Part shown: positions 1,640 to 49,995 of the stretch, one piece after another
Position numbering within the stretch: position 1 is the first letter of the stretch
Layout: each line of letters begins with the position of its first letter
Origin: a virus
IMG/VR virus record: IMGVR_UViG_3300028571_002266
Span: 104,479-168,478 of that record
Strand: one strand, 5' to 3'
Length of the DNA stretch: 64,000 nucleotides
Translations under genes and position numbers: made by a program
Notes under the pieces: generated by a model
Told to the model about the DNA's origin: nothing
Database searches by the model: none
What the model saw: the letters and a program-made list of their open reading frames with translations, nothing else

Positions 1640-1666
1640 GAAATCCGTCTTCCGTTAAAGGACGGA
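1640..1666 (+). repeat. dispersed GAAATCCGTC hairpin element copy
   Basis: GAAATCCGTCTTCCGTTAAAGGACGGA directly after the def stop codon. Confidence 0.75.
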
Positions 1667-1682
1667 GCTAAGGGAATGAATT

Positions 1683-1961
1683 ATGTTAAGTCTCAAACAA
1701 TTAGAAGATGTGTGTCTGAATTCAGATGCGACTTCTCAAAAATGTCGATATATTTGTCAAGATGAAGTTGACAAAAATAAGTTTTACTGCTTAAAACTTT
1801 CTGCTAAAGCTAGCAAAATAGATAATGAAATTGAAAATTATATCAAAGTAATTAGCTTAAAAGGCAGAGATCCTTCTGATGAAAATTTACCATTAGGGGA
1901 CAATTGTTCTGGTTATCCTTTTCTTAGGCATATCGAACAAGGTTACGACAAGAAAAATTAG
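1683..1961 (+). CDS. Cys-rich hypothetical protein
   Basis: 92-aa ORF with RBS, operon-like position. Confidence 0.6.
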   Translation: MLSLKQLEDVCLNSDATSQKCRYICQDEVDKNKFYCLKLSAKASKIDNEIENYIKVISLKGRDPSDENLPLGDNCSGYPFLRHIEQGYDKKN

Positions 1962-2458
1962 AGACTTTCTAGTCTCTCTCTGATTATCTGGTAGATATCC
2001 TTTCCTTTGTTTTCTTCAACAGCAGAGGAAAGGATATTTGCTTCTAGCTCATTACTGTTAAATCTTGCTATCTCTCTTACCATTAGTTCGTTCGTCTTTT
2101 CGCTGCTTATAGCTCTGTTTCGATAGTAGAACAATAGCATTGCTATGACAACTAATGCGAAGATGAAGATTAGTGCTCCATCGCCTTGGATTATTTGAAC
2201 TCCTGTGTTTTCGTTTCGTGAAATTGCGCCGTTTATGTTGACTAGGCCGCTTTGTATTTCTTTCAGAAGACTATTTTGGGCTGATAGATCTTGCCTAGTC
2301 TTCATGAGTTCGGCCATTACCCCATTTTGGTTTGTGCGTATATCCTCTATTTTACCATTTTGATTTTGTATTTTGGGGTTGTTTCTTGGGTTGAAGTTTG
2401 CACATCCTACCAAGTTTAACAAGGTTGCGGCTGCAATAATCAACAAAAATTTGTACAT
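1958..2458 (-). CDS. lipoprotein with coiled coil and a second TM segment (spanin-like architecture)
   Basis: GGAGG RBS before ATG 2458; signal peptide ending LVGC lipobox; TM GALIFIFALVVIAMLLFYY. Confidence 0.6.
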   Translation of the reverse strand: MYKFLLIIAAATLLNLVGCANFNPRNNPKIQNQNGKIEDIRTNQNGVMAELMKTRQDLSAQNSLLKEIQSGLVNINGAISRNENTGVQIIQGDGALIFIFALVVIAMLLFYYRNRAISSEKTNELMVREIARFNSNELEANILSSAVEENKGKDIYQIIRERLESL

Positions 2459-2477
2459 ACATCCTCCACAATATGTA

Positions 2478-2537
2478 TTTACAAGTGGGGAATTTCTTTG
2501 TACACTATGCTGAGAAATCCGTTTCATGTTGACGGAT
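2478..2537 (+). promoter_or_regulatory. sigma-70 promoter followed by hairpin element
   Basis: TTTACA-17bp-TACACT, then GAAATCCGTTTCATGTTGACGGAT 7 nt after the -10. Confidence 0.7.
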
Positions 2538-2561
2538 GATCAACCCGCTGGAGGATTTGGC

Positions 2562-2972
2562 GTGGCTCAAGGCAAGGATGTTTTTTTCTTTGGTGATGAA
2601 TTTGATGATGAAAATTCATCAAGTGAAAGCGCACAGATTGCAAATGAATTTAAGCAGAATGCTAATTCATTAGTTGTACATCATTTGTCAAATTACTTCA
2701 AGGACAAGATGTTGCACACAGGAGGAAATGTTCCTGATCAATTACTAAATAGTCATAAAAGAATATCTATGGTTTTGAACTACACTGTTTCTAATGGTGT
2801 AGATCATGCTCATGAAAGACTAGAATTTTCTGAGGGGAGAAACAATGATGATGAGAATTCAGAGCTTATCGTCACTGTTCTTCATGGAATAGCCAAAAGT
2901 GGTGTTCCGAAGGAATTTGCTGGTGGTATGCTTTGTCTGCACTTGGAATTAATAGAAGGGATAGATTTTTGA
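2562..2972 (+). CDS. hypothetical protein
   Basis: GGAGG RBS before in-frame GTG at 2562. Confidence 0.6.
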   Translation: MAQGKDVFFFGDEFDDENSSSESAQIANEFKQNANSLVVHHLSNYFKDKMLHTGGNVPDQLLNSHKRISMVLNYTVSNGVDHAHERLEFSEGRNNDDENSELIVTVLHGIAKSGVPKEFAGGMLCLHLELIEGIDF

Positions 2973-3283
2973 ATCTTGATTTATTATTGTTGTCAAGGCA
3001 ATTTGAGACTGTCGAATTGCCGAAGGAAAAGAAATACCTCCTGAGATATTTTGAAAATCCAGTTCAGGAGGCTTTTCTTAAATATTTCTTTGTATTTGGT
3101 AATTATGTTAATTTTTGTGACCACACTGGTCATTTCGTGCAGAAAAAATGGTTAAAACATCTGCATGAAAAATTAAAAACAATTGAAAAAGCCCACAAAG
3201 ATGCCAGATCTAACTTTGACATGGCTGGACTTGTTGAAATTGAAAAAGGTGAATTCAAATTCAGTCGTCATCTTCCTAAATAG
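2933..3283 (+). CDS. hypothetical protein
   Basis: ORF track; start uncertain. Confidence 0.55.
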   Translation: MSALGINRRDRFLNLDLLLLSRQFETVELPKEKKYLLRYFENPVQEAFLKYFFVFGNYVNFCDHTGHFVQKKWLKHLHEKLKTIEKAHKDARSNFDMAGLVEIEKGEFKFSRHLPK

Positions 3284-3286
3284 TGT

Positions 3287-3529
3287 ATGGCACTAATATC
3301 ATTCGGCGATTGGCGTAAAAAATTTGATGAAGCAAGCCCTACTACAAGATTAAGGGCTGGAATTGAGGCGGGTAATTATCCCATGTCTGCTGGGGTGGCT
3401 ATGTCTCGATCCACACCAAGCCCATCTTTTGTAAAGAAGGCAATTGAAGAATTAGGATCACCTGAACATCCTAAAAGGAAAAATAAGACTAAAAAGAAAC
3501 GTAGGAATTCCAAGAAAAGGGAAAAATGA
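3287..3529 (+). CDS. small basic protein, putative internal head protein
   Basis: N-terminus ISFGDWRKKFDEA, Lys/Arg tail, TAAATA 4 nt before ATG. Confidence 0.55.
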   Translation: MALISFGDWRKKFDEASPTTRLRAGIEAGNYPMSAGVAMSRSTPSPSFVKKAIEELGSPEHPKRKNKTKKKRRNSKKREK

Positions 3530-3924
3530 TTTTTTTCAATGAATGGATGCAGGAAAGATTCGATGAGGCTAAAAAGTCTCGTCGCACCCCTGTTCCTCAT
3601 TCTGATGTTGAAAAATGGATGCGTTCTTTAGAGCTTCTCAAGAAAGATCTTGAGGAATTGCAGAAAGCCAAGAAGAATGCTGCCCAAAGATTTGCTAGAG
3701 AAGCAAAAATCAAGAAGGAAAAAGAAAAGAAGGCTAAAGATGCCAAGAAGTTAAAAAAGAAAAAAGATTCAGAAATAGATAAAAAATCTGAAAAAGAACC
3801 TGAAGTTGAGAAGAAAGATAAAAAACCTGAAGTCAAAAAATATGATTCCAAGAAAAATGTTGTATCTGATAAGTTCAGACAGATTAAGAGTCAAAGGCGT
3901 AAAAATAATAAGCCTAGAGACTAA
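3526..3924 (+). CDS. Lys/Glu-rich protein, putative internal head protein
   Basis: N-terminus MIFFNEWMQERFDEA; highly charged low-complexity body. Confidence 0.55.
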   Translation: MIFFNEWMQERFDEAKKSRRTPVPHSDVEKWMRSLELLKKDLEELQKAKKNAAQRFAREAKIKKEKEKKAKDAKKLKKKKDSEIDKKSEKEPEVEKKDKKPEVKKYDSKKNVVSDKFRQIKSQRRKNNKPRD

Positions 3925-3974
3925 TTATTTTTAAGTTGGCAGTCTCCACTATAATTAAATAGCGGAGATAGATC

Positions 3975-4421
3975 ATGAGTACTGAAAATATTTGCAACGA
4001 TGATTCCTTAGATCAATCTAAGGCAAAAAATGCCAGAGATGTTCTGAAAGGCATTATTGTTTCAGAATCAAATCTTGAAACATATTTAATTGCAGTAGCT
4101 GTTCATAAAGATTCATCCAAGAATTTTATCAATAGAATAAGTTGTAAGAAGGGCATACCTCTTGATGGATATGTTTATGATGCTCAATCAGACAGTTATT
4201 TCATAGAATGCACTGATTTTTTGCATGTAGGGGTAATTCCTGTTTCTTTTGTTGCTACTGCTAAAGATTCTTATTTTTGGAAAATGAATATACCTTTGCC
4301 TGAAGCTGTCATTAAAAAGTATTTGACTGAGATCCAAAAGAAGGATTTGAAAAACTTTAAGAGTCATTTTAGCTCTCAAGATTACATGATTAATTATGTT
4401 CAAATGGTTAATCCAAACTGA
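3975..4421 (+). CDS. hypothetical protein
   Basis: GGAG RBS, 148 aa. Confidence 0.6.
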   Translation: MSTENICNDDSLDQSKAKNARDVLKGIIVSESNLETYLIAVAVHKDSSKNFINRISCKKGIPLDGYVYDAQSDSYFIECTDFLHVGVIPVSFVATAKDSYFWKMNIPLPEAVIKKYLTEIQKKDLKNFKSHFSSQDYMINYVQMVNPN

Positions 4422-4459
4422 ATTCATGTTTTTCTGGTTCTTCTGCCATAAATAATTTC

Positions 4460-5287
4460 ATGGCATGCTCATCTACTGGAATAGGCTGTACTACTACAAC
4501 TGCAAAAAGTTGTCCTGACGAATATGGATGCGTTAGCGGCGTATGTGCCGATTTCATCATTCGTAGGCATGATACTAAACCATCTTTCAAGGTTAAGATC
4601 GAAGATTGCGATGGACCTCTTGATCTTACAGATCTTGTTCTTGAGGCCACAATGTGGGCCAAGGGGAAGCTTAAGGTTTCTCTTGATCAGAATGATTCAG
4701 TTATTGGTTTGGCTGATAATATTGGCTTTAATCAAGTAATGCAGGGCGATGTGATTATCATGGATCAGGCTAGATTGCCTGAGAAGATGCTTGTTGTTGG
4801 ATTTGATGAAGTAAATCGCCTCATTCGTGTCCAGAGAGGTTATCATGGAACCCCAGTGCAAAACTGGAGACGTGGCACAGGATTGAAAATCATTAAGTTT
4901 TCTAACGCAACTGCTACAACTGAAATGTTGTATCAGGACATCATTAACATTGATGGAACAACGACTAAGGATGTTTTAGTCGATAGTTTTTTAATTTATG
5001 ATTGGCAGAGTGAAGACACATGTCTTCCGGGTTGTTATTATTTGGAATTTAAGCTTTTGAAAATGGTGGTTTCTTTTGCTCTTGCTTATGATTCTTCTGT
5101 CCCAAGCAATCAAATTCCTAGTAATCTTTTGCCTGATGGAGTTATTCCGAGTTTTACTGATCCAAGTTTTATACCTTCCGATTTTGGTTGTTCTATGAAT
5201 CCACTTGTTGAATGGATAAGAAGGTTTCCTATTGATAAAGAAGGCTTTATAATTAAAATAACGAATACTTTTACGGCTGATGATTGA
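4460..5287 (+). CDS. putative virion structural protein
   Basis: FIIRRHDTKPSF...PLDLT and YDW...DT..PG.YYLEF resemble BppU-like baseplate/fibre domains; TAAATA upstream. Confidence 0.5.
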   Translation: MACSSTGIGCTTTTAKSCPDEYGCVSGVCADFIIRRHDTKPSFKVKIEDCDGPLDLTDLVLEATMWAKGKLKVSLDQNDSVIGLADNIGFNQVMQGDVIIMDQARLPEKMLVVGFDEVNRLIRVQRGYHGTPVQNWRRGTGLKIIKFSNATATTEMLYQDIINIDGTTTKDVLVDSFLIYDWQSEDTCLPGCYYLEFKLLKMVVSFALAYDSSVPSNQIPSNLLPDGVIPSFTDPSFIPSDFGCSMNPLVEWIRRFPIDKEGFIIKITNTFTADD

Positions 5288-5312
5288 CATCATAGAATTT
5301 AAGTCGTATTTT
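5284..5312 (+). promoter_or_regulatory. sigma-70 promoter for infC
   Basis: TTGACA-17bp-TATTTT. Confidence 0.55.
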
Positions 5313-5353
5313 TGTATAGGGTCTTTTTTATGTTGGAGCATGGATTTCACAAG

Positions 5354-5899
5354 ATGCAGCAAAACAAATTTCCTAGAGAGCGAAGCGAAGATCAAAACAG
5401 AGTTAACTGGCAGATAAGAGTGCCACAAGTTAGGGTTGTTCGTGAAGAAGAGCAACTTGGCATTATGGCTACTGATGAGGCAAGAAAACTTGCCATGGAC
5501 AATGGTCTTGATCTAGTAGAGATCGCTCCTACTGCGAAGCCTCCTGTTTGTAGGATTATGGATTATGGTCGTTATAAATACGAACTGAAAATCAAGAAAA
5601 AAGAAGCTGCAAAGAAGCAGCGTGAGTCACAAGTCCAGATAAAGGAAATTAGACTTCGTCCTGCTATTCAAGATCATGATATTGAAACAAAAATTAATCA
5701 GGCGAAGAATTTTCTTGAAGAAGGTTGTAAGGTTCAATTTTACCTTCAATTCAAGGGTTACCGTGAATTGAATCATAAAGAGCAGGGTTTCGCTGTTATG
5801 AAAAAAATTGTTGAAACAATGGAGCAATTTGGAGTCGTAGAGAAAAGACCTGCGATGGAAGGCAATCGAATTACATGCTTTTTTACTCCCAAAGTATAG
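5354..5899 (+). CDS. infC: translation initiation factor IF-3
   Basis: N..IR..QVRV, LDLVEIAPTAKPPVCRIMDYGRYKYE, KEIRLRP.I..HD. Confidence 0.96.
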   Translation: MQQNKFPRERSEDQNRVNWQIRVPQVRVVREEEQLGIMATDEARKLAMDNGLDLVEIAPTAKPPVCRIMDYGRYKYELKIKKKEAAKKQRESQVQIKEIRLRPAIQDHDIETKINQAKNFLEEGCKVQFYLQFKGYRELNHKEQGFAVMKKIVETMEQFGVVEKRPAMEGNRITCFFTPKV

Positions 5900-5910
5900 T
5901 GGGAAACATC

Positions 5911-7119: not shown

Positions 7120-7128
7120 GGTTGCGTA

Positions 7129-7380
7129 ATGATTTATAATTTAACGAAGGAAGAACTTCTGGAATTTGCACATGTGATTTACGAGCAATCTGTGAATGGT
7201 TATTTAGATCTGAAAGAAAGTACTTGTCACAAGTTGCTAGTAAATTTTTTAGCAAACAAAAAAACTTCTATTCCAGATACTAATGTAAACATGAGTACTA
7301 ATTTTGTGGATACAAATCAGATTTTTAATTCTGATGTTTTCACGGTAACAGAAAGTTTCATCATCAGTCAAACTCAATGA
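7129..7380 (+). CDS. hypothetical protein
   Basis: GAGG RBS, 83 aa. Confidence 0.55.
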   Translation: MIYNLTKEELLEFAHVIYEQSVNGYLDLKESTCHKLLVNFLANKKTSIPDTNVNMSTNFVDTNQIFNSDVFTVTESFIISQTQ

Positions 7381-7404
7381 GTTTGTAAATTTACGGGGAT
7401 AATT

Positions 7405-7776
7405 ATGTCGAAGAGTAAGATTCTCACTCCTATGGGTTCAGTTTATGATTCTACTATTATTGGTGGTGGATCAAAAGTTCCTAAAATCAAATCTGTCAAG
7501 CCAACTGGTTCGCAGGTTCTAATTGAATTCTTGACATCTCAGGAAATGCTTGGGACAAGTCTAGCTGTCAATGAAAAAACAGATTTGAAAGTTCCTTTGC
7601 AAGGCTATGTTCGCTCTGTAGGCCCTAACTTCAAATCATCAGATTATGGGTTTAATATAGGCGACAGAGTCACTGTTTCAGGTCCCGGTATTCATGTTCC
7701 TAATTGGGACAATATTCACCGTGATCGCTTCCTTATGGAACCTTCTTCAATTAAAGGCGTGATCATAGAAGAATGA
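7405..7776 (+). CDS. groES: GroES-like co-chaperonin
   Basis: VKPTGSQVLIE, G.VRSVGP, IGDRV, LMEPSSIKGVI follow the GroES pattern. Confidence 0.75.
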   Translation: MSKSKILTPMGSVYDSTIIGGGSKVPKIKSVKPTGSQVLIEFLTSQEMLGTSLAVNEKTDLKVPLQGYVRSVGPNFKSSDYGFNIGDRVTVSGPGIHVPNWDNIHRDRFLMEPSSIKGVIIEE

Positions 7777-16092: not shown

Positions 16093-17316
16093 ATGAATTT
16101 TAGATTATGGCTTGAAAGCGAAGAAAAACAAGATGTCATCGATATGGAAATACCGATGCCTGATGACATTGTTTTTTTGAATGAATTATTCAAAAAGCAT
16201 GGTAAAAAGTTGTATGCTGTTGGTGGAGTTATCCGTGACTTCCTGATTAGTCACTTCCATATGAATGGGAAGGGTGGAGGTCCAAAGGATGTTGATTTAA
16301 CAACTGATGCTAGGCCAGAAGACATAACTAAGATTTTATCATCAGAAGAAGCGCAAAGACATGGGATTAGAGTTCTTCCTAAGGGAGAAGCATTTGGTGT
16401 TATTTCAGCTATTATGGATGGAAAAGAATATGAGATAGCAACATTTAGAGAAGAATATTATGATCCTATTCATGGTGATGGTCGAAGACCAGATAGAGTG
16501 AGCTATTCTACGGCAGATAAGGATGCACAGAGAAGAGACTTGACTATGAATGCTCTTTTCTACGACATAGACAAAAAAAGAATTATAGATTACAACACCA
16601 TTGATGGTCGTGGGCAAGGAATTAATGATATTAAAAATCTTGTTGCTAGGCCGGTTGGGAATCCAGAAGAAAGATTTAGAGAAGATAAACTTAGAGTTCT
16701 TCGCCTTGTTCGCTTTTTCAGCAGGTTTAATCCCGGCTTAATCAAGGATAATGTTGACAAGGACACTTTGAATGCAATTAATAAATTCAAATTTTTGGAA
16801 GGTGTTTCAGGAGAAAGGATTGTGGCCGAATTCACGAGTGGTTTTAAGGCAGCGATAAATAAAAATAACTTCTTCAGAAATTATCAAGACTTAGATCTTT
16901 TCCCTGCTGTTTTGCCTAATTTGATTATTGATGTTCAAAACTATGAAGAAAGCAATAGTTTTCCTGCTTCGTTAGCTTTTATTCTAAGAAACAATACGAA
17001 TTCATCAGTAGTAAGAAAACAATTGTCTGCATTAAAATATCCAAATGATATTTCTGATAAAGTGGAATTTTTCTTAAGATTAACAGAATTTGATGGAAGC
17101 GAAATTATTACATTTTTGAGGCGTAGAGATGCTTTGCATGATGTTAAGAAAGATTTACTGGAATTTGCAAAGTTAGAAAAAAATAATTATTTAGTTCATT
17201 TTGCTAATTATAAGCAACAAACTAACAGCAAAGATTTTATGCATCTTAAAGGCCCAGATATAACAAAGGCTATGAATCAGCGAGAAAAAGAAATTTTCTT
17301 GGCCAGTGCTTATTAA
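16093..17316 (+). CDS. cca: class II tRNA nucleotidyltransferase (CCA-adding enzyme)
   Basis: YAVGGVIRD, KDVD, EIATFR, flexible loop GRRP, RRDLTMNA, EDKLR templating motif. Confidence 0.88.
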   Translation: MNFRLWLESEEKQDVIDMEIPMPDDIVFLNELFKKHGKKLYAVGGVIRDFLISHFHMNGKGGGPKDVDLTTDARPEDITKILSSEEAQRHGIRVLPKGEAFGVISAIMDGKEYEIATFREEYYDPIHGDGRRPDRVSYSTADKDAQRRDLTMNALFYDIDKKRIIDYNTIDGRGQGINDIKNLVARPVGNPEERFREDKLRVLRLVRFFSRFNPGLIKDNVDKDTLNAINKFKFLEGVSGERIVAEFTSGFKAAINKNNFFRNYQDLDLFPAVLPNLIIDVQNYEESNSFPASLAFILRNNTNSSVVRKQLSALKYPNDISDKVEFFLRLTEFDGSEIITFLRRRDALHDVKKDLLEFAKLEKNNYLVHFANYKQQTNSKDFMHLKGPDITKAMNQREKEIFLASAY

Positions 17317-17352
17317 TTGTTGGATTTTCTGTTTGGCCAATAAATAGTTTAT

Positions 17353-18756
17353 ATGACAATTTACAATGATACAATGTCTGATGGAGTTCTGATTGATGGA
17401 ACGGCAGGTGTTGTACAACAATTTTCGGTTGACTTGCAGGTTTATTACGCTGTAAATGAAGAAATTGAATCTGAGATTTCTTTTTATTGGTCTGTAGGCG
17501 AGTTGCCTTTGTATTGGTGGGTTATAGAAGGATATGTTCATCCTCCTGATGACACAAAGTCTTTAGATGTATCTGTTCCAGAAAAGCAAAATTTTATACA
17601 AACAATTCTTGCAAGAACTCCCAAAGAGGTTGGTGAATATTTTGCTCGTGAGTCTCGAAACTGGGAAATAGTTTACCTTAAGAGGTATAGCCAGCCTGCT
17701 GATATTTACCTCAATGATCCTAGTCTTCCGAATGACTTACAAGTTGTTGATTATAAATTTCCTCAATTTTCTGTAAGCACTAGATCTTTGATAAAGATGG
17801 GCATGACTGTTTCAGTTGTGCAGATTTATCAAAGATATCAAGGAAGTGGAGGTGCTACATTTTACGGAAGTGCAGATGCAGCAATTACAAGTGGAGCAGT
17901 AACTCCGACAACATCTAATTTTGTTTATGATAGTTCTGGTGGTCATGTTTTAACTGGTGGATCAGGTGGAGCGGTTAGTTCATTTGCTACTAGTTTCTTG
18001 ACATATGGTGGAATAAAAACCTTCTTGTTAAGTGATGTTATTTTTGGATTAGGATCTGCTCCTGCTCTTATCGCTCCTACCAACACAGTTGCCACAGCTT
18101 GTGGCTCATGTATAAGTTTCCCATTAGAGTTATTCATAGAAAATAACTTTAGTAATCCCGGTGTTTTAGGTAATTTCTTGCAGCGTAATGCTTATACTTT
18201 CCCGTCAATATTGCCACTTATTTACAGTGGTCGTAGTAATTCATGGTTGGCTTTTAAGCATTTTGAAGGTTCGTCTGGTGATAATGCAAATATTGAAAAT
18301 TGGCGTTTTCAGTTTGAGTGGGCTTGTACAAATAGTCCTTTCGGTCAAGAAAACGCAACAAGCACTCCTGCTTTCAAATTTTCGATTATAGTTACAAGAA
18401 AGAATCTTGGAACAAATATTGCCATTGATACAAGAATTGTAATTATTTTTTCTTCTGACGATGTTTGTGAAACAGTGAGGAATTTCAAAGAAGATTTTAT
18501 TTTCAATTTGAACACGAAAACAAACTATATTAATAATGGGAATGGGATTGTGCCAATTAGCGTTCTATTGAATGATAGAATTGGTATTTTCAAATCTTCA
18601 TATTGGACTGATAATCCTTATTTGAACATAAGGATTTCTAGTACAAATATTTTCAATAAGGGTGAAAACAAGGACATTAGTTCGATTATCCCTAAACCTC
18701 CAACTTTATATCAGTTGGGGACAAGTTTTGCGAGATCTTCGACTGCTGTGATTTAG
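17353..18756 (+). CDS. putative virion structural protein
   Basis: Gly/Ser/Thr-rich central region; TAAATA upstream. Confidence 0.45.
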   Translation: MTIYNDTMSDGVLIDGTAGVVQQFSVDLQVYYAVNEEIESEISFYWSVGELPLYWWVIEGYVHPPDDTKSLDVSVPEKQNFIQTILARTPKEVGEYFARESRNWEIVYLKRYSQPADIYLNDPSLPNDLQVVDYKFPQFSVSTRSLIKMGMTVSVVQIYQRYQGSGGATFYGSADAAITSGAVTPTTSNFVYDSSGGHVLTGGSGGAVSSFATSFLTYGGIKTFLLSDVIFGLGSAPALIAPTNTVATACGSCISFPLELFIENNFSNPGVLGNFLQRNAYTFPSILPLIYSGRSNSWLAFKHFEGSSGDNANIENWRFQFEWACTNSPFGQENATSTPAFKFSIIVTRKNLGTNIAIDTRIVIIFSSDDVCETVRNFKEDFIFNLNTKTNYINNGNGIVPISVLLNDRIGIFKSSYWTDNPYLNIRISSTNIFNKGENKDISSIIPKPPTLYQLGTSFARSSTAVI

Positions 18757-18765
18757 GAGAAAATT

Positions 18766-19062
18766 GTGGAAGCAATTATTTTGTCGTTGTGTTTTATGAT
18801 TCTTATTATCAATTTGGTTTTTTTGTTTTTCATTGGTATCTTTCTTGTTAGGATGAATGATCGTTTTGACAATATGTTTGCAGAATTGGTTGAAATTATT
18901 TCTGATTCTCCATCGGCTGTTCCTCCTTCTGCTAAAAAATCTCAGACTTGGGATGAAAAATATGAACGTGAGATGGAAATGATTGCAAGGAGAATGAGGG
19001 GAGAGTCGGCTCTTGATGATTTGCCAAATTTGAGATCATACGATGTTCCAGAGCAAACTTAA
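18766..19062 (+). CDS. single-pass membrane protein
   Basis: AGGAG RBS, GTG start, N-terminal TM. Confidence 0.6.
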   Translation: MEAIILSLCFMILIINLVFLFFIGIFLVRMNDRFDNMFAELVEIISDSPSAVPPSAKKSQTWDEKYEREMEMIARRMRGESALDDLPNLRSYDVPEQT

Positions 19063-19078
19063 TCAAAAAAAAACAGTC

Positions 19079-19145
19079 TTGTTTTGCCCCTCTGAAAAGT
19101 TTATGATGCTGCTTCATGGAAATCCGTCCTCCGCTGACGGACGGA
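19079..19145 (+). promoter_or_regulatory. sigma-70 promoter followed by hairpin element
   Basis: TTGTTT-17bp-TATGAT, then GAAATCCGTCCTCCGCTGACGGACGGA at 19119. Confidence 0.6.
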
Positions 19146-19157
19146 AGAGGTATGGTA

Positions 19158-20165
19158 ATGGAACAAAAGAAGTTAAAATATGTCAAGTTTGATAGTCAAA
19201 GGAGATTTGGCGTTGAATTAGAAGTTGGCAATGAGGTCAAAAAGAAAGCTGTTCAATCTGTTATTTCAACTGTTTCCAAGTACAACGCTTATGTTTCTCG
19301 CTATGCTCTTTCCAATAACAATTGTTATTGGCACATAAAGGATGATGCCACCTGTGGATTGAAAGGTCGCAATGGTCCTAAGGGTGTTGAGATTGCTTCT
19401 TTTATAGGAAAAGGAATAGATGATATTGATCATGTATCGTTTGTAAGCTCGAAATTAAACGATATTGGCTGTAAAGCAAATCATAATTGCGGCTTACATG
19501 TTCATGCAGAGGTTTCTGATCTTACCATGGATCAGGTTGCAGTTATTGTTGCTTGTTGGATCAAGATTGAACGATTAATGAGCATGATTTTACCAATAAG
19601 GCGCTATCAAAGTGAACACTGCAAGTTCATGTTTGCGCCATCTTGTAATGATAATGTTTTTGGTTTATGTCGGGAAAAATCATATACTTGTCATGATTTC
19701 TTGGAAGCTGTTTCTCCAAAGAATTTAAGTTATTTCGACAATGATGATAGAAGGTTTAATCTTAATTTGGTTAATTTGGTTCGTGCTGTAAATGACAACA
19801 GTCCAAATCGTCGCACTATTGAATTAAGGTGGCCAGAAGGCACTCTTGAGCCTCGTGACATTCGATGTTGGGTTAAGCTTTTTCTTTTGTTTATTGACAG
19901 TTGCAAAGACAGAAAGATGCCTAAAAATTTGCATCATTGTGGACTTGAAGAGGGATTGCAAATGTTTGGTCTGAGCCATTCAAAAAATATTTTTATTATC
20001 ATGAGCGAATCGATACATGAAACAAAAACATGGTTTTTGGAAAGAATTTTGAATCACAATGGTGACGCTGTTGAATTTTATAAATCTAAAGATGTTTTGA
20101 AGATTGCTAATGAGGCGAAGTTTATTTTGAATCAAATGTGGTCGCCAATTCGCATTTATGAATGA
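19158..20165 (+). CDS. putative amidoligase (COOH-NH2 ligase type 2)
   Basis: RRFGVELE, W.IKDD.T, GVEIAS, NCGLHVH, RRTIELR. Confidence 0.85.
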   Translation: MEQKKLKYVKFDSQRRFGVELEVGNEVKKKAVQSVISTVSKYNAYVSRYALSNNNCYWHIKDDATCGLKGRNGPKGVEIASFIGKGIDDIDHVSFVSSKLNDIGCKANHNCGLHVHAEVSDLTMDQVAVIVACWIKIERLMSMILPIRRYQSEHCKFMFAPSCNDNVFGLCREKSYTCHDFLEAVSPKNLSYFDNDDRRFNLNLVNLVRAVNDNSPNRRTIELRWPEGTLEPRDIRCWVKLFLLFIDSCKDRKMPKNLHHCGLEEGLQMFGLSHSKNIFIIMSESIHETKTWFLERILNHNGDAVEFYKSKDVLKIANEAKFILNQMWSPIRIYE

Positions 20166-29592: not shown

Positions 29593-30462
29593 TTAATCGA
29601 TTTTGAATTGTTGTAATCCGCCTTCGCAAGGCGGATTTTCTTTTTTAATTCTTTCTTCTGCCATGATGCAATAATCAGGATTAAGATCTATCCCAATAAA
29701 ATTTCTTTTAAGTTTATTTGCAACTGCTCCTGTTGTCCCTGAGCCGACAAATGGGTCTAAAACAAGATCACCTTCTTTGCTTCCTGCCAGCATGCAAGTT
29801 TTGACTAGTTCTTCTGGGAACACGGCAAAGTGAGCTCCTGCGTATGGTTTTTGATTTATTTTCCAAACTGATCTTTTATTTCTTTTGTTGGCTCCTTCTG
29901 TTTTTTCTTCTTTTATGGCTTCAGAATTATAAAAATAATGTGGATTTTTAGTAAGTAAAAAAACATATTCATGGCATCTTGTAGGTCTATCTTTGACTGC
30001 TTCAGGCATTCCATTGGATTTTTCCCAAATAATATCAGCTCTGAGATACCAACCTTCTGATCTTAAAGCCATTGCTACCATCCAAGGTATGCCAACTAAA
30101 TCTTTAGCTTTGAATCCGGGAGGAACTGGTCTTGGCTTTGCTTTGACTCCACGATTAGTGGATTGTTTACTTCCAGCTTGATTTGATGGTGCTGTAGGAC
30201 AATATCCTCCTCCTCCACAAAATGTATCACCAAGATTGATCCAGATTGTTCCGTCATCACGGAGAACATCACGAACTTCTCTGAATATCTGTACCATTCT
30301 TGCGACGAACTCTTCTGGGGTCTTCTCTGTTCCGAGTTGATCTTTCTGGCCATAATCTCTTAATTGCCAGTAAGGAGGAGATGTTATGCATGTTTGTACA
30401 CTATTGCGCTCGATTTGTTTTAATCCTTCGATGCAATCTGAATTTATAATTTTTGATTCCAT
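29593..30462 (-). CDS. DNA methyltransferase, beta class (N4-cytosine/N6-adenine)
   Basis: TSPPYW catalytic motif N-terminal to VLDPFVGSGTT; HFAVFP. Confidence 0.92.
   Translation of the reverse strand: MESKIINSDCIEGLKQIERNSVQTCITSPPYWQLRDYGQKDQLGTEKTPEEFVARMVQIFREVRDVLRDDGTIWINLGDTFCGGGGYCPTAPSNQAGSKQSTNRGVKAKPRPVPPGFKAKDLVGIPWMVAMALRSEGWYLRADIIWEKSNGMPEAVKDRPTRCHEYVFLLTKNPHYFYNSEAIKEEKTEGANKRNKRSVWKINQKPYAGAHFAVFPEELVKTCMLAGSKEGDLVLDPFVGSGTTGAVANKLKRNFIGIDLNPDYCIMAEERIKKENPPCEGGLQQFKID
29615..29646 (+). terminator. terminator hairpin of the lectin operon; also a variant of the dispersed element
   Basis: AATCCGCCTT-CGC-AAGGCGGATT followed by T-rich tract. Confidence 0.65.
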
Positions 30463-31068: not shown

Positions 31069-31078
31069 TGAATGTGTT

Positions 31079-31152
31079 GCCCCCGTAACTCAGGTGAATA
31101 GAGTAGCGTTTTTCTAAAGCGCAAGTCGTTGGTTTGAATCCAACCGGGGGTA
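31079..31152 (+). tRNA. tRNA-Arg(UCU), CCA not encoded
   Basis: acceptor GCCCCCG/CGGGGGT, D stem ACTC/GAGT, anticodon stem GCGTT/AGCGC with loop TT-TCT-AA, T stem GTTGG/CCAAC. Confidence 0.9.
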
Positions 31153-31191
31153 TTATTTTAGATCATATTACCAACCTATTCTGGTGACACG

Positions 31192-35017: not shown

Positions 35018-35072
35018 TTAAATTCTTATTTTGACTACAATTGATTTGTTCGTTAATTTTTATTTCTTCAAA

Positions 35073-35094
35073 GAAATTCGTCGTCTGTTGACGG
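35073..35094 (+). repeat. dispersed hairpin element copy
   Basis: GAAATTCGTC-GTCTGTT-GACGG, downstream of TTGACT-17bp-TAATTT. Confidence 0.7.
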
Positions 35095-35356: not shown

Positions 35357-35420
35357 GTTGATTTTTGGGTTTTTTCGTCTATGATTCCTAGAGAAATCCG
35401 TTCATCAGTTGGTGGGCGGA
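35357..35420 (+). repeat. promoter-plus-hairpin cassette, copy A
   Basis: 35357-35401 is identical to 40682-40727 except one T; TTGATT-16bp-TATGAT-7nt-GAAATCCG. Confidence 0.85.
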
Positions 35421-35442: not shown

Positions 35443-36618
35443 ATGTTTTCCACTATTTTGACTTTAGCAGCATCTTTTTTTGGAATATGGGCTTTTTGTA
35501 AATATGTTGTTTTTATTGAAATAAGAGTAGACGGGAACACATTCAAGACTCTTTATGATTATTTCAAGAATGACAATAAATTTGTCTTGTATGAGGAATT
35601 CACTTCAGAAGCTCAATATCCTGTTTTCTATTCTGTTTTTTGTTTTCCAAAGTCAATTCCATGTTTTTTCCTAACTCGTAATGAGCGTCTTTTTCAAGCT
35701 GGCTGGCAAAGCAAAGATTACTTAACAGTGATCACCTGTTTCAGGTGGGATTATAATAGATTCAAGATTTTTTTGAATGTTGGTTTGAAAGATGCCAGTT
35801 TCAGAACTAGTGGTGTTCCAATAAGACTTCTTTTGCCTTTTGGAACGGATAAGATTGGTTCTTTGAAAATAAGAATGAATGAGCCAATGATAGATCCTGT
35901 TTTGTGGCGTGACTTCGACAATGAAGTTGGAGAAATGGTTTCTGGCAAGAGGATCAAGACAAGTGCTCTTCTTCATGGTTTGCCCGGAACTGGCAAGACA
36001 TCTTTAGTCAAATATTTGTCAACGAAATATGAATTGCCGATTATGATTTTCACTTTGAACCCAGAGTGGAACAACCATGACCTTTTGTTTATGTTTTCAA
36101 ACATTCCATCAAAATGCATAGTTCTTATGGAAGATTTTGATAATTATTTTGATAAAAGACAATGCACTATGGGCAATGACAGGAATTATATTAAATTTAC
36201 TTTTGATATAATTCTTAATGGTTTAGATGGTGTTTACAACACTTATGATAAAGTCGTTTTCATTATGACTGTTAATGATATTGACAAGGTTGATGATGCT
36301 TTGAAGGATAGACCGAGTCGTTTCAAATTCGTCAAGCATTTTGACAATCCATCTTTTGAGGCTAGGAGCAGGATATTGGGAGAAGATTGGGCTGATTTGA
36401 CAGCAGGAATGAATTTGGATCAAATCTATCGGATTAAGGAGTACCAAGATCAAGGACTGACTTTCAAAGAAGCTATGCTAAAATTAGGGAAAAATATTGA
36501 TTGTACTCAAATCAATAGAATTGCTGAAAATATTTATCGGCGTAGAATTGCATCTAACTTGCCCGGAAACGACAGAGACGATTGGTTTACTGCTGAGAAT
36601 ATAATCACATCAAAGTAA
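35443..36618 (+). CDS. membrane-anchored BCS1-like AAA+ ATPase with DUF2934-like tail
   Basis: N-terminal TM; GLPGTGKT, LMEDFD, LNGLDG, RPSRF; tail IY.RR...PG.D.DDW..AE. Confidence 0.75.
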   Translation: MFSTILTLAASFFGIWAFCKYVVFIEIRVDGNTFKTLYDYFKNDNKFVLYEEFTSEAQYPVFYSVFCFPKSIPCFFLTRNERLFQAGWQSKDYLTVITCFRWDYNRFKIFLNVGLKDASFRTSGVPIRLLLPFGTDKIGSLKIRMNEPMIDPVLWRDFDNEVGEMVSGKRIKTSALLHGLPGTGKTSLVKYLSTKYELPIMIFTLNPEWNNHDLLFMFSNIPSKCIVLMEDFDNYFDKRQCTMGNDRNYIKFTFDIILNGLDGVYNTYDKVVFIMTVNDIDKVDDALKDRPSRFKFVKHFDNPSFEARSRILGEDWADLTAGMNLDQIYRIKEYQDQGLTFKEAMLKLGKNIDCTQINRIAENIYRRRIASNLPGNDRDDWFTAENIITSK

Positions 36619-40678: not shown

Positions 40679-41119
40679 TTAGTTGATTTTTGGGTTTTTT
40701 TCGTCTATGATTCCTAGAGAAATCCGTCCGGCGTTGACGGTATGATTAGCATGAGGAATTTCCAGTTCTGCATTAGGATCAAATCTTTTGATGATTTTTT
40801 GAAAGATCAAGTATAGCATTGCTGTAACAATCGTGAATTCAAGGAAGGCGTTGACTAGATTTCCAATTTCAAGTTCAAGTCCTTTTGTTGGCGTAAAAAC
40901 TAGATTGCGCCAGTTGCCATTAGTTGCTGATATCAAGTAATTGATGATTGGCATAACAAGTGACTCTGTCATAGAAGAAGCAAACTTTTGTGTTTGAGTT
41001 GCTAGAACAAGAGCTAAGGCCATGACAAAGAAATTTTTCTTGTAAGCAAATTTCTTGTATTCTTCAAATTCTTCTTTGATTCTTTCGGATTTGATGAAAT
41101 TTCTTTCTTCGTCATTCAT
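40679..41119 (-). CDS. mscL: large-conductance mechanosensitive channel-like protein
   Basis: EYKKFA.K.N, SS....VMPII, IGN.VNA...F.IV...LY. Confidence 0.7.
   Translation of the reverse strand: MNDEERNFIKSERIKEEFEEYKKFAYKKNFFVMALALVLATQTQKFASSMTESLVMPIINYLISATNGNWRNLVFTPTKGLELEIGNLVNAFLEFTIVTAMLYLIFQKIIKRFDPNAELEIPHANHTVNAGRISLGIIDEKNPKIN
40682..40740 (+). repeat. promoter-plus-hairpin cassette, copy B (antisense to mscL 3' end)
   Basis: TTGATT-17bp-TATGAT-7nt-GAAATCCGTC-CGGCGTT-GACGG. Confidence 0.85.
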
Positions 41120-41145: not shown

Positions 41146-41218
41146 TTGACATTTTAACTGAGTCTGCTTACTTTATTTGTGCTTCTGCTTTTTTGGAAAC
41201 AAGTTACTCTTTGACGGA
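41146..41218 (+). promoter_or_regulatory. parB promoter with degenerate element
   Basis: TTGACA-17bp-TACTTT; GAAAC-AAGTT-N7-GACGGA at 41196-41218. Confidence 0.5.
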
Positions 41219-43744: not shown

Positions 43745-43751
43745 GATTTTG

Positions 43752-45205: not shown

Positions 45206-45219
45206 ATTTTTAAGATCTA

Positions 45220-45307
45220 TTGACCTTTTGGTTCATTAGGATTATCATTATTTTGGAAATCCGCCTTCCGTTGATGAAACGGAGGGCGGAGGGCGGAGGG
45301 CGGAGGG
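45220..45307 (+). ncRNA. promoter-driven hairpin with (CGGAGGG)4 array, candidate sRNA or leader
   Basis: TTGACC-17bp-TATCAT-7nt-GAAATCCGCCTTCCGTT-GATGA-AACGGAGGGCGG; repeat array 45280-45307. Confidence 0.45.
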
Positions 45308-45430
45308 TGTGATGTTTCGATGAATATCAGCTAAAATATTGTCTTTTTGGCTGTCAATGTAACTATCATAATAAATGAAAACTAATTTTCTTGTTTTGAG
45401 AGACTTCACATGCCAAGAGGGTTGAGCTAA

Positions 45431-46051
45431 ATGAGTTATATTGTTTCTACTTTTTTCAATGAGAACAGTTGGAATAAGTTTGGCCTCAATTGGGTCCGTA
45501 ATACCAAATCTGCATCACTCGATGCTCTAATTATAGGCAAAGATTTGCCAGAAGAAGCAATCACAAAGATTGCTGAACTTAATTTTCGTTATGTTCCTGT
45601 TTTGAATAAATTCAAGACAGATTGTAATGTGGATTACACTTTGGTTCAAAATTTAGAAAAAAATCAAAGATGTCTTTGGACTCAGCCTGAGATTTTGCCT
45701 AAAGCTGGAATTTATTCTAGAAATACGTCATCTGTTGACGGAGAATCTGATTTGATTTGTGGATTAAGTTCTTTTAATGTGCAGGATTTGACTCAGTCTG
45801 TAGTCAATTTATATGACAGGGCTGCAATGATAGAATCTTTGAAGCAGAAAATTGAAAATGTACATGGCAAATACTTGTCTAGCGATTATATGCTTGGAAC
45901 ATATGATTTTTGGAATGGATTTTTTGGTTGCAAGGCCTACCTCTTTGAAAGAGGATATCTACAAGGTTCTGTGCAAAGCGATGATCTTGTCTTGAATTTC
46001 TTTGTTTCCTTCGCTAATTCTTTTTCTTTACAAATAAAGGATTACTCTTAA
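45431..46051 (+). CDS. hypothetical protein containing an in-frame element copy (45720-45742)
   Basis: GAAATACGTC-ATCTGTT-GACGGA encodes RNTSSVDG. Confidence 0.6.
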   Translation: MSYIVSTFFNENSWNKFGLNWVRNTKSASLDALIIGKDLPEEAITKIAELNFRYVPVLNKFKTDCNVDYTLVQNLEKNQRCLWTQPEILPKAGIYSRNTSSVDGESDLICGLSSFNVQDLTQSVVNLYDRAAMIESLKQKIENVHGKYLSSDYMLGTYDFWNGFFGCKAYLFERGYLQGSVQSDDLVLNFFVSFANSFSLQIKDYS

Positions 46052-46052
46052 A

Positions 46053-46187
46053 ATGATTTACAGCACACTATCTCATTTAGGTTCTTTTGTGTTTTTTATG
46101 CTAAGTGCTTTTGTAATTTGCACTTTCATTATTGCTATTACAAGAACTAATGAAGATGAGACAACAAGAATTAAGGAAGATGAATGA
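46053..46187 (+). CDS. 44-aa membrane peptide (below ORF-track cutoff)
   Basis: fills the gap between neighbours; one TM; ATGA overlap with next gene. Confidence 0.55.
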   Translation: MIYSTLSHLGSFVFFMLSAFVICTFIIAITRTNEDETTRIKEDE

Positions 46188-46612
46188 GCGTATTGCTTTT
46201 TGTTTACGGAACTCTAAAAATAGGGTTTACTAGAAATTATGCTTTGCAGGGACAGATCTATTTGGGAACTGCTAAAACAAAGCCTGAATATAGCATGCAT
46301 GCAACAGGAGGATATCCCGCCCTTCTCAATAAAAAACTTGCCGAACAAAATAATATCAAGGCAGATAAATCTATTTTTGGTGAAATTTGGGAAGTTGATG
46401 AGGATTGTCTTGTAAGATTGGATAAAATAGAAGGCGTAGAAATTAATTTGTTTGAAAGATCAACCATAAATATCGAAGAGTTTACTCTTAGTCGTTTGCC
46501 TATTGACAAAACAGTTTGGAATGATGTACAAGAAAATAAAGCTTATGCTTATTTGTACAAACAGCCGATAAATGGAGCGGCATGCTGTGGATCTTTTTGG
46601 CATAGAAAGTAA
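46184..46612 (+). CDS. gamma-glutamylcyclotransferase (GGCT/AIG2-like)
   Basis: LFVYGTLK, YPAL, GEIWEV, LDKIEG, AYAYLY. Confidence 0.88.
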   Translation: MSVLLFVYGTLKIGFTRNYALQGQIYLGTAKTKPEYSMHATGGYPALLNKKLAEQNNIKADKSIFGEIWEVDEDCLVRLDKIEGVEINLFERSTINIEEFTLSRLPIDKTVWNDVQENKAYAYLYKQPINGAACCGSFWHRK

Positions 46613-46620
46613 GGAATTTT

Positions 46621-47010
46621 ATGGATTATCTCTTTCTCTTATCAATATTCATCGCAGGATTTACTTTAGCTACATTTATATTTTTGTTTTATCGCATCTA
46701 TATGCTGAGACACATTAAATTAATTCAATCTCAATATTTGCTTGAAGATCTCGAATTAGCAACTAAAGAACAACTTTTGACTGAATTTCGCAATAGACCA
46801 AACAATTCTTATATTCTCTTAATGCCAATGTCCAGCAAAGAAGAAATGGGAATGAAAATTGAGTTGAATAGCTTCAAGCCTTATGATAGCGTTAATCTTT
46901 TGCATCTGGCCACAACCCTTATTTTCAGAGAAATGAAAAATAAAGGTATGTCAGTCCCAGAATTACCTGCAATAGATGTTCCTTCGACAGAAGACGGATC
47001 ACAACGGTAA
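46621..47010 (+). CDS. single-pass membrane protein
   Basis: N-terminal TM; minus-strand element copy at 46980-47000. Confidence 0.6.
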   Translation: MDYLFLLSIFIAGFTLATFIFLFYRIYMLRHIKLIQSQYLLEDLELATKEQLLTEFRNRPNNSYILLMPMSSKEEMGMKIELNSFKPYDSVNLLHLATTLIFREMKNKGMSVPELPAIDVPSTEDGSQR

Positions 47011-47038
47011 TCATCATTTGTCGCTTTAAGAGGTTAAG

Positions 47039-48181
47039 ATGGAACCCAAAAGGTCTAGAATCTGCTTGAATACTATGGTCGCCAATGAAGCCCATGTAAT
47101 CAAAAGGATGCTTGAATCTTGTTATAATTATATTGACTATTGGATTATTCAGGACAATGGCTCCACTGACGGAACACAAGAAATAATTCGTAACTTCTTT
47201 CAGGATAAGAACATACCCGGATTTCTTTATGAAATTTCTTGGCAGTATCCCGGATATAATCGTGATCATGCTTTACAAACAGCTTTGCAAGCTTCACACA
47301 ACTGTGATTGGATATTGAGAATCGACGCTGATGAGATTTTGCAGGTCGATGATGAACTTGATTGGAAGCTAATCAACGATACAACTATCGAAAGCTTCAA
47401 TATAGTTGCGCTGCAAGGTCAATGCAGTTATCAACGCTGTTGGCTATGGAACTCTAAGCTTCCTTGGAAATTCAAGCATGATAAGCGTCATGAAACCATT
47501 TATATGGACAAAGATAATATAGGCGAAGGATTCCAGAGGGTTTCTCTTTCTCCAAAATTCAAACACTTAATCATGGGTGACGGCAGGACTTGGTTCAATC
47601 CCACTAAGTTTTATTCCGATGCTTTAGAGATAGAGAAGGATCTTTTGTCTGACAGTAAGATGTCTAATGACACATATCATCTTTTCTATATTGGCAAAAG
47701 CTATAGAGATGCAGTTCTTGATCCAAGAACAAAGTGGCCTTTTGGAACAAATCATTTACATGAATGTGCAAGAAGAGCTATATTCTTTTTTGAGCAATAT
47801 TTGAATGTTGTTCATCAATACTCAGAAACTAAAAAGCCGAAGCACATGGATGAAATGGCCTACATGGTTCTAGTTTTCATGGCAGAGTGCCAAAGAATAA
47901 TCAAAGATGATGAGGCTGCTATTTCATTATTGATGCAGGCAGAGCCATTTTGCCCAGAAAGAAACGAACATCTTCTTGAAATTGCACAAATTTATTCTGA
48001 TCATGGTCAAAGAATAGGTTTGCTTAACGCAACAACAAGACTTGTTGGTCAATCAAGAAAGAATCCATTCCCAAGATTTTGTTTCTTCATAAATAATGAA
48101 GCTTATTACGACACAGGAAAATATGTGAAACACCTTCACAGTATTGCTTGTTCTTTCAACAATATTTTGCCAGTAGATTGA
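47039..48181 (+). CDS. glycosyltransferase family 2 with TPR-like C-terminus
   Basis: ICLNTMVANE, D.GSTDGT, RIDADE, HE, FYIGKSYRD, PERNE. Confidence 0.85.
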   Translation: MEPKRSRICLNTMVANEAHVIKRMLESCYNYIDYWIIQDNGSTDGTQEIIRNFFQDKNIPGFLYEISWQYPGYNRDHALQTALQASHNCDWILRIDADEILQVDDELDWKLINDTTIESFNIVALQGQCSYQRCWLWNSKLPWKFKHDKRHETIYMDKDNIGEGFQRVSLSPKFKHLIMGDGRTWFNPTKFYSDALEIEKDLLSDSKMSNDTYHLFYIGKSYRDAVLDPRTKWPFGTNHLHECARRAIFFFEQYLNVVHQYSETKKPKHMDEMAYMVLVFMAECQRIIKDDEAAISLLMQAEPFCPERNEHLLEIAQIYSDHGQRIGLLNATTRLVGQSRKNPFPRFCFFINNEAYYDTGKYVKHLHSIACSFNNILPVD

Positions 48182-48655
48182 TTAGAATGCCTTTCTAAGC
48201 TCATTGATTGTTCTCTCAGCATCAACGTGTAATATTCCAGTTCCTCCCCAGTCATGCCATTCTTGGATGTTACTGGGGAGATCGTCTATTAGTATTTTTC
48301 CTGAACTAGCGTAATATTTTTTCAACTTGCTTTTCTCAACACAGATAATTCTATTTCCAGAAACGCCAATATGATTCTGGCACCATATATTTTTACCTTC
48401 ACATGCTTCTTTTGACTCTGAACATGATGTCAGGATATAAGGTTTATATTCTTTGATAAAATCCCATAGGATTTGACAGTCTTTTGTTTCAGGTAGATTT
48501 GCCCAAAATTCAATTTTTTCTTTGCTTGTGAGCTTGTCGATATAACTGTTGAAGTAGTCTATGAATGTTTCTCCGTTGCTAAGATGAAATCCATATATAT
48601 CACTTAGTTTTCCAGCTAAATCAACAAGAACACCATCTAAATCACAATATATCAT
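48182..48655 (-). CDS. HAD-family 5'(3')-deoxyribonucleotidase
   Basis: IYCDLDGVL, FWANLP, GK..W, ILIDD...NI.EW...GG.GILH. Confidence 0.88.
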   Translation of the reverse strand: MIYCDLDGVLVDLAGKLSDIYGFHLSNGETFIDYFNSYIDKLTSKEKIEFWANLPETKDCQILWDFIKEYKPYILTSCSESKEACEGKNIWCQNHIGVSGNRIICVEKSKLKKYYASSGKILIDDLPSNIQEWHDWGGTGILHVDAERTINELRKAF

Positions 48656-48724
48656 AATTTTTTTTTATTCTCTGTTTACAAATTACCTTAAATTCTATAA
48701 GTTATTATAGGATAAAGCAAATTT

Positions 48725-49003
48725 TTGAAAGGAATCGATGAGATGAAAAACCCATTAGGCAAAAACGTCGATCTTAGACTATGTGTGGTCGATAGCACAT
48801 ATGACAATGAATTGGACGAATGGATGATTGATAAGATTTCTGCAACGGATTCAGTCTTGAAAATTGCAAGTCCAAGTCAAGAAGAAATATGCAGCAAGGT
48901 TAAGCTTTGCAGGAAGAAGCATATTGCTTATGTTTCCAAGAATGACATATTTGTTGTACATCGTGATACCAAACAGCCAATAGTATGCTTGAAAAAAGTT
49001 TGA
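48725..49003 (+). CDS. hypothetical protein
   Basis: ORF track. Confidence 0.5.
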   Translation: MKGIDEMKNPLGKNVDLRLCVVDSTYDNELDEWMIDKISATDSVLKIASPSQEEICSKVKLCRKKHIAYVSKNDIFVVHRDTKQPIVCLKKV

Positions 49004-49042
49004 TTTTTTATCTGAAGAGTTTTCTGAAATAACTGAGATTCG

Positions 49043-49882
49043 ATGCGAATAAGAGATGTGGAGATCAGAGTCACAGACGGAGAACTGGGAATGAACGTCA
49101 AGAAAGTTTGGTTTTACATCCATCGTTTCGATGCCGCTAAAACTGCACATGTAGCCAGAATAATTCTCAAAAAGTACCCTTTCATCAAGCCTACTGTTGA
49201 AGGTGACAAGTGCATCCTTTTGTGCAGCGATATGGGTAAAGATCCATCTTCTTGGGTCATTGAGAAGCTTGTTGAAAATAAAAGGTTTTTGGGGCATTTC
49301 CATTCAGAAAGCAAGAGATATAATGCCGAAAGGCATGAATATCTGACAGAAATGCATCATGCTGCTGTCTGTCGTTTTGGTTTTTTTGACTTATATGACG
49401 TTCCTGACGATTTAGAATTTGCCAATTTTATTGTTGGGAAGTTACAAAACACTCTTTCAGGTCAGCCAGCTTATCTTGCTGAAGAGAATGCTTCTATCAG
49501 CAGTGGTCATAAATTGAATTTTTCAAATGAGATTAAAGTGGAAAGGAGGAAGATGTATATCTATAACCTCGTGAGATTCCACAATTACTCTAAGGAATTG
49601 GCAACATTAACAATTGACCGAAAGTTTCCAGAATGGAAAGATATAAAAATCGAGAAGAAAAAGATCAGTCCTCGTGAGGAAAGAAAAAGGGCTAGAGATG
49701 AGTACAAGAAAGCTTTGGAACTTGCCAAGAAGTTAGCTTTCATGTCGGCGAAAGATAGAAAGAATCATCTCAGTCAAAATAACAACTTGTTTGAATTTTT
49801 ACTTTTCGTTAAGCTTTGCAAGGTAAAGGGCAGAGAGTGGATTTTGGAAAATGTTGGACCTGTTCCCGGAATTGTCGAGTAA
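49043..49882 (+). CDS. hypothetical protein
   Basis: ORF track. Confidence 0.6.
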   Translation: MRIRDVEIRVTDGELGMNVKKVWFYIHRFDAAKTAHVARIILKKYPFIKPTVEGDKCILLCSDMGKDPSSWVIEKLVENKRFLGHFHSESKRYNAERHEYLTEMHHAAVCRFGFFDLYDVPDDLEFANFIVGKLQNTLSGQPAYLAEENASISSGHKLNFSNEIKVERRKMYIYNLVRFHNYSKELATLTIDRKFPEWKDIKIEKKKISPREERKRARDEYKKALELAKKLAFMSAKDRKNHLSQNNNLFEFLLFVKLCKVKGREWILENVGPVPGIVE

Positions 49883-49972
49883 AAAATTAGGTCTGTGATT
49901 GCTTAGACCTGTCTTAATTTGATGGGTTTAAGCAATCTGACCTTCTTTGAAGGCGGCTTATAGTTACTTTAA

Positions 49973-49995
49973 GAAATCCGTTTTCTTTTGATGGA
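49973..49995 (+). repeat. dispersed hairpin element copy (antisense to small minus-strand ORF)
   Basis: GAAATCCGTT-TTCTTTT-GATGGA, 8 nt after TATAGT. Confidence 0.55.

Follow-up and report, generated by a model that had tools for sequence, protein, structure and literature searches.

The closest known kinds to the element described here, a directional 23-nt hairpin dispersed over 64,000 nt of viral DNA (IMG/VR virus record IMGVR_UViG_3300028571_002266, positions 104,479 to 168,478; hereafter the window), are solitary repeat units (SRUs) with the RNA anti-CRISPRs (Racrs), and CRISPR RNA (crRNA)-like RNAs (crlRNAs). Viral SRUs and Racrs are single intergenic repeat mimics that often sit right after a promoter and keep the features contacted by Cas proteins (PMC10651486). 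The crlRNA, CreR and Cracr units pair one degenerate repeat with a spacer-like stretch and are linked to cas regulation (bioRxiv 10.1101/2023.03.10.532045; 10.1101/2024.10.29.618823), and the SRUs upstream of cas12a are solo repeats beside the effector gene with no targeting pattern, for which effector binding has been proposed (Shmakov et al., bioRxiv 10.1101/2023.03.03.530964). The regulatory CRISPR repeats described so far either guide Cas proteins to promoter DNA or serve as decoys for those of the host. Phage-encoded type V-I systems have been reported in huge phages (PMC7162821), and our literature search turned up no paper on Cas12i handles scattered over mRNA leaders.

Here, we identify the element as the 3' 23 nt of the 36-nt CRISPR repeat from the phage's own array, almost certainly the mature crRNA handle of a phage-encoded Cas12i, and weigh what its scattered copies might do. 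The window is the last 64 kb of contig C1 of genome G000, a viral contig of 168,478 bp with an estimated completeness of only 39%, so the genome is that of a jumbo phage. A sequence-only reading of the window had proposed an undescribed phage-wide regulon tag, an oriented hairpin of RNA or ssDNA at transcript starts, with a 5' tail recognized by sequence and a phage protein as its probable reader. The element is real and that description of it stands at the RNA level, whereas the tag is neither a new operator nor stable, its copies being gained and lost between relatives.

The source locus lies on the same contig 16–20 kb upstream of the window, with cas12i at 84741–87881 and the adjoining array at 88009–88888. 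The 1046-aa product of cas12i (P0001) matches Cas12i2 over residues 4–1036 (phmmer E 1e-101) and has an intact RuvC triad (D616/E831/D1015) and intact pre-crRNA-processing (RNase) residues (K20/H492/H493), while the array comprises 13 repeats of 36 nt with a V-I handle and unique 35–38-nt spacers. Judged from its gene and repeats, the locus is a member of type V-I. It shares with the type V-I Cas12i2 system (PDB 6LTP/6LTR/6LTU; PMC7567891) a homologous effector, all catalytic residues, the absence of Cas1 from the available contig, the 36-nt repeat and a 23-nt handle; the latter differs from the Cas12i2 crRNA handle, AGAAAUCCGUCUUUCAUUGACGG (supplement of PMC7567891), at 3 of 23 nt, two of which form one compensated pair (−12/−8). 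It differs from that system in its nine or more solo handles in mRNA leaders, 17–66 kb away from the array. The Cas12i2 handle has a 6-nt tail and a 6-bp stem with bulge and loop, and the protein makes base-specific contacts with tail, bulge and loop; the pre-crRNA is cut between −24 and A(−23), which requires A(−23), G(−22) and A(−21) as well as K18/H485/H486 (PMC7567891). As the handle studied here is Cas12i2-like, the GAAAT and GTT earlier noted as conserved correspond to Cas12i contact positions. A full protospacer was not found for the array spacers, and crRNA-guided cleavage by P0001 at a TTN protospacer-adjacent motif (PAM) is only predicted. No match to Cas12i was found among GenBank phages, related-locus searches with Cas12i, its adjacent gene and the ParB-like gene came back empty, and the exact handle occurs in 0 GTDB genomes.

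Scanning the 168-kb contig with a profile made from the array handle only yielded nine matches outside the array at 21–34 bits, compared with none at ≥20 bits in 20 local Markov (composition-matched) shuffles of the contig. These enriched matches are the nine plus-strand copies seen from sequence alone; all nine lie inside the window and eight are outside true coding sequences (CDSs), the exception being 45720 within CDS 45431–46051. The degenerate copy at 41196 is also present, at below 12 bits (chance level taken alone). The unit begins one base earlier than had been noted (AGAAAT) and finishes at GG; the terminal A is variable, and A(−23) is retained in 7/9 copies. Two supposed variants do not stand out in the scan: the minus-strand copy given as 46980–47000 (here 46981–47003, 15.7 bits) and the terminator given as 29615–29637 (here 29618–29640, 14.8 bits) each score at chance level alone. 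Matches from a loose pattern scan look like chance, and a structure-only hairpin scan fails to separate G000 from its syntenic relatives G004, G006 and G008 (7–10 per 100 kb). An Rfam scan of the window detected tRNA alone; a lone tRNA-Arg(TCT) lies at 31078–31153 (+). The copies, named by the positions first given for them, and the two weak candidates are:

1639..1665, plus strand: the 1640 copy, a solo handle with extended stem between the peptide deformylase gene and a 92-aa gene, inserted and absent in three relatives; its 3' GG merges into GGAG, with an ATG 17 nt downstream.
2513..2535, plus strand: solo handle with its first A on the predicted +1; Shine–Dalgarno sequence (SD) 14 nt and GTG start 26 nt downstream.
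19118..19144, plus strand: solo handle with an ACGG stutter, preceding the amidoligase gene; probably uncut because it has G at −23.
35072..35094, plus strand: solo handle with the ATG of a 78-aa gene 15 nt downstream; conserved in relative G004.
35392..35419, plus strand: handle with extended stem, on the +1 predicted for the promoter of the AAA+ gene; an ATG lies 23 nt downstream.
40682..40740, plus strand: duplicated promoter and handle cassette, the handle at 40718–40740 having the top score of 34 bits; antisense into mscL and absent in G004.
41195..41217, plus strand: decayed handle with the ATG of the parB-like gene 14 nt downstream; intact handle in the same leader of G004.
45255..45310, plus strand: handle with extended stem on a predicted +1 and with CGGAGGG stutters behind it; a long open reading frame (ORF) is lacking within 140 nt.
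45719..45741, plus strand: handle inside a gene, a 24-nt in-frame insertion in CDS 45431–46051; absent in G004 and G008.
49972..49994, plus strand: solo handle with G-U pairs and a −10 box 7 nt upstream; the next plus-strand gene is 195 nt off.
46981..47003, minus strand: possible inverted or decayed copy; the same leader of G004 has an intact plus-strand handle.
29618..29640, no strand: hairpin of a bidirectional terminator, handle-like in its geometry and conserved in G004; kinship to the repeat is only putative.

Changes are distributed unevenly along the handle, amounting per site across ten copies to 3% in the tail, 10% in the stem, 7% in the GTT and 47% in the loop, where the loop figure covers three positions that do not vary within the array of the phage. 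A simulation of uniform decay under the same score filter reproduces this pattern at P<1e-4 at every rate tried. Stem changes are mainly to G-U, with the caveat that C-to-T bias favours such changes, and stems are extended at 1640, 35393 and 45256.

At 2514, 35393, 40719 and 45256 the end of a TAnnnT −10 box lies 6 nt upstream of position −23, and the box is paired with a −35 of 4–5/6 at 16–17 bp, which confirms the register read from the sequence alone, and in the 49973 copy and the cas12i leader (which holds a decayed handle at C1 84707, 14 bits) a −10 box lies 7 nt before −23; the background rate of such promoter placement is 0.8% of positions. The 35393 and 40719 copies represent a single duplicated promoter cassette and are not independent. 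Three further copies had been placed 8–13 nt after a −10 box; the 19119 copy has a weak −35 and the 35073 copy no acceptable −10. The predicted +1 falls on or beside A(−23) in five copies and also in the cas12i leader, and transcripts of the promoter-linked copies would, from these predicted starts, begin like mature crRNA. Past the handle, where a spacer would sit, a start codon follows at 14–27 nt in five strong copies and in the decayed 41196; counted as a start codon within 30 nt, this holds for 5/8 intergenic copies versus 22% expected (P ~0.015, with rough ORF starts). Start codons also follow solo handles in L167 (before DUF444), L189, L152 and L196 (before cas12i) and at G004 50802.

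Set against the known kinds, the copies resemble SRUs and Racrs in that 8/9 are intergenic and five follow a full promoter. Those elements lack a link to the virus's own cas genes, whereas here cas12i and the array stand on the same contig. There are also many copies, each with only the 3' half of the repeat, the cognate Cas gene is the phage's own, and the handles are fused to mRNA leaders instead of forming stand-alone RNAs; no host with the repeat was found (GTDB, exact handle). As in crlRNAs, the repeat-like unit keeps the processing hairpin. In contrast to crlRNAs, the spacer slot here is taken up by the SD and start codon of the gene itself, which would place any action in cis at the RNA level, and PAM-flanked promoter complementarity of the crlRNA type (~10 nt or more) does not rise above chance in a contig covering 39% of the genome. 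The SRUs of cas12a remain in the cas locus, while the handles here are spread over the genome and turning over.

Comparison with the syntenic relatives indicates how the copies came and went. Relative to G004, G006 and G008, the 1640, 19119 and 45720 copies are insertions, the last as 24 nt in frame, and in all three the 3' GG falls on a GG already in the empty allele; on these alignments, copies are lineage-specific insertions. G004 has intact copies of its own at 35985, 44964 and 50802 (strong copies 3/3 on the plus, sense-block strand), decayed ones elsewhere, and a complete repeat at 49094 that has lost its hairpin. The G004 leaders matching 41196 and 46980 hold intact handles. No handle was found in G008 (173 kb, with orthologues of 75 window genes, CsrA and ParB among them, and with cas12i missing from the locus), nor in the ~20 kb of G006 common with the window. 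A DNA source for the copies is favoured by the whole-repeat remnant in G004 and by vestiges of the 5' half of the repeat at 2514 and 35393 (p ~0.02 each). In L167 a 5'-truncated repeat is joined by microhomology to about the 26th codon of cas12i, with the gene deleted and three repeats left (L167:1600–1880), so junctions between repeats and foreign DNA do occur in this clade; the same cas12i/repeat junction is present at a contig end in L166:6780–6984. ACGG or CGGAGGG stutters straight after the handle end are seen in the L169 and L186 arrays and in the window at 19141–19144 and 45280–45310, and stutter formation probably explains the CGGAGGG run past 45256. RNA-templated insertion of handles was considered and is unsupported, as the contig, 39% complete, yielded neither Cas1 nor a reverse transcriptase. 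Sequences past the handles failed as old protospacers against 106 spacers, except that the 41196 copy and the array's last spacer have 8 nt beyond the repeat in common. The window block at ~50200–61700, with the 49973 copy at its left edge, is inverted versus G004 and, for genes in common, versus G008.

Cas12i loci in other contigs include forms without arrays. The G006 cas12i (16393–19404; L198:11231–14254, L199:10789–13812) is full-length with no adjacent array, and its product has RuvC D-to-N and E-to-T changes with the K/HH RNase residues intact, a combination unique among 35 aligned homologues; a CC...GG hairpin with a GAAAAT tail precedes its SD. At L152:10001–13081 an array-less Cas12i with intact RuvC occupies the same PrkA-DUF444-SpoVR locus and has a solo handle just before the SD. 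Handle-like hairpins cover the cas12i SD in L152, L196, L184, L195 and L199, which suggests that regulation in this clade began as autoregulation, although such hairpins are missing in the closest orthologues and distant loci. Neither leader handles nor solo copies were seen in the available flanks of the distant Cas12i loci L162, L237, L238 and L240; that of L238 (13340–13470) has a two- to three-repeat array with a different handle (TGTGTC/GACAC stem) and no solo copies within 18 kb. L160 and L161, whose Cas12i is 91% identical to P0001, have another neighbourhood (DnaJ, HATPase, amidoligase) and another leader, so the cas12i–array cassette seems to move between phages. Near-perfect handles also occur at L164:202–224, L189:771–793 and L172:2181–2203, in low-GC contigs without DNA similarity to the phage; those of L164 and L189 directly precede genes, and in L189 a second, partial copy stands right before the first. 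The region upstream of prkA in G006 holds a TnpB/Cas12f-like gene (L198:369–1580); a CCGAC/GTCGG hairpin close to the 3' end of this gene may be its own scaffold for guides.

Binding of the phage's own transcripts in cis would fit most of these data. Cas12i probably binds such transcripts, and does so under selection, as the handle conservation and sense orientation suggest; that control of translation or processing of the downstream gene is the selected effect is a more tentative proposal. The boldest reading, at a rough probability of 0.38, is that a nuclease-active phage Cas12i doubles as a post-transcriptional regulator, with repeat fragments shed from the array becoming switches at promoters and ribosome binding sites, the regulon being rewired by this spill-over, and some lineages retaining a Cas12i that is array-less or RuvC-dead solely to bind RNA. 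In the explanation we favor, repeats would recombine into non-array DNA at 2–4-nt microhomologies, often an existing GG of GGAG, and sense-direction copies would be retained because their transcript then resembles crRNA. With A(−23) as the +1, the mRNA would begin as a ready-made handle; at an internal copy, Cas12i would cut 5' of A(−23) and stay on the downstream piece. The next 20–26 nt would fill the spacer slot, which in about half of the copies contains the SD and start codon, and Cas12i binding there would block ribosome entry or set the mRNA 5' end. The phage's own locus would go uncut because the handle ends in GG, not a TTN PAM.

Several observations weigh against regulation by Cas12i. 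No start codon lies near 40719, 45256, 45720 or 49973, of which 40719 points at mscL, 45720 is intragenic and the other two are remote from any gene; where genes do follow (amidoligase, AAA+ ATPase, ParB-like, unknowns), they have no common function. Covariation, one of the checks proposed for the hairpin, is weak (16/500 shuffles), and hairpin-loop hypermutability or copies descended from copies could mimic selection. Sites turn over fast, with 35073 the sole copy intact in both G000 and G004. The closest cas12i orthologues, 91% identical to P0001, have no leader handle, and the nuclease-dead, array-less G006 has no handles at its orthologues of 1640, 2514 and 19119, where a domesticated regulator might be expected to retain them. 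All three relatives are genome fragments, and the cas12i state was read for G006 and at the G008 locus.

The alternatives partly overlap with this explanation. Handle-bearing early transcripts might instead act as Racr-like decoys that load and titrate Cas12i, whether encoded by the phage or by a co-infecting relative that shares its repeat, with the downstream gene incidental; we consider this unlikely, and it is compatible with binding in cis. A decoy would require the same sense direction, promoter, tail and stem, viral solitary repeats that often directly follow a promoter act in this way (PMC10651486), and copies without a start codon would be accounted for. Kin with the same repeat exist, too: spacer 12 of L003 matches G000 C1 3613–3650, in a long repetitive gene, at 20 nt exactly plus scattered bases, which suggests, from this alignment, targeting of related phages (the cas12i leader also matches an L003 spacer over 14 nt, no more than chance would give). 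However, known Racrs are discrete small RNAs against a host system, whereas the exact handle is in no GTDB genome and the phage would be disabling its own intact system, and the excess of start codons in the spacer slot would be left unexplained. The copies might also be neutral scars, left by an active, recombinogenic array whose repeat fragments land at microhomologies, survive where harmless and decay. Fast gain and loss, the range from intact to decayed copies, the in-frame insertion in a CDS, the ACGG stutters also found within arrays, the cas12i deletion through the same type of junction and the absence of handles where the array is absent all speak for such scars. Yet antisense copies would then be the safest, and every strong copy is sense; the tail is nearly invariant against 47% change in the loop, and the +1 register with A(−23) recurs, so we regard purely neutral origin as quite unlikely.

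Handle plus the next 20 nt could in principle direct Cas12i to DNA, either to repress promoters in the manner of crlRNAs and CreR, as phage and host crlRNAs do with one repeat and 10-nt matches (bioRxiv 10.1101/2024.10.29.618823), or to home by cutting the handle-less allele of a relative, which would explain why copies are sense, spread rapidly and are missing from the relative whose RuvC is dead. The top TTN-flanked seed matches in the contig (39% of the genome) are 6–9 nt, the same as for shuffled guides, and the empty alleles of 1640, 19119 and 45720 carry NGG, not TTN, before the would-be protospacer; guiding is thus very unlikely. The readers first proposed, namely the CsrA, ParB, ribbon-helix-helix or winged helix-turn-helix proteins of the window, are an exceedingly improbable choice. 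CsrA and a ParB-like gene are present and some copies end in ACGGA, but the element is identical to the Cas12i repeat and G008 has both orthologues without it. The supposed CsrA core does not hold either: its final A is not conserved, and its GG is paired in the stem where a CsrA site has GGA in the hairpin loop.

The natural leaders would offer designs for Cas12i-controlled translation switches, and the handles, one protein with ten natural leaders, would bear on what viral solitary repeats do. If Cas12i does gate these mRNAs, its role would be new among class 2 effectors, the handles would make visible one way in which regulatory sites come about, and spill-over of CRISPR repeats could rewire a regulon.

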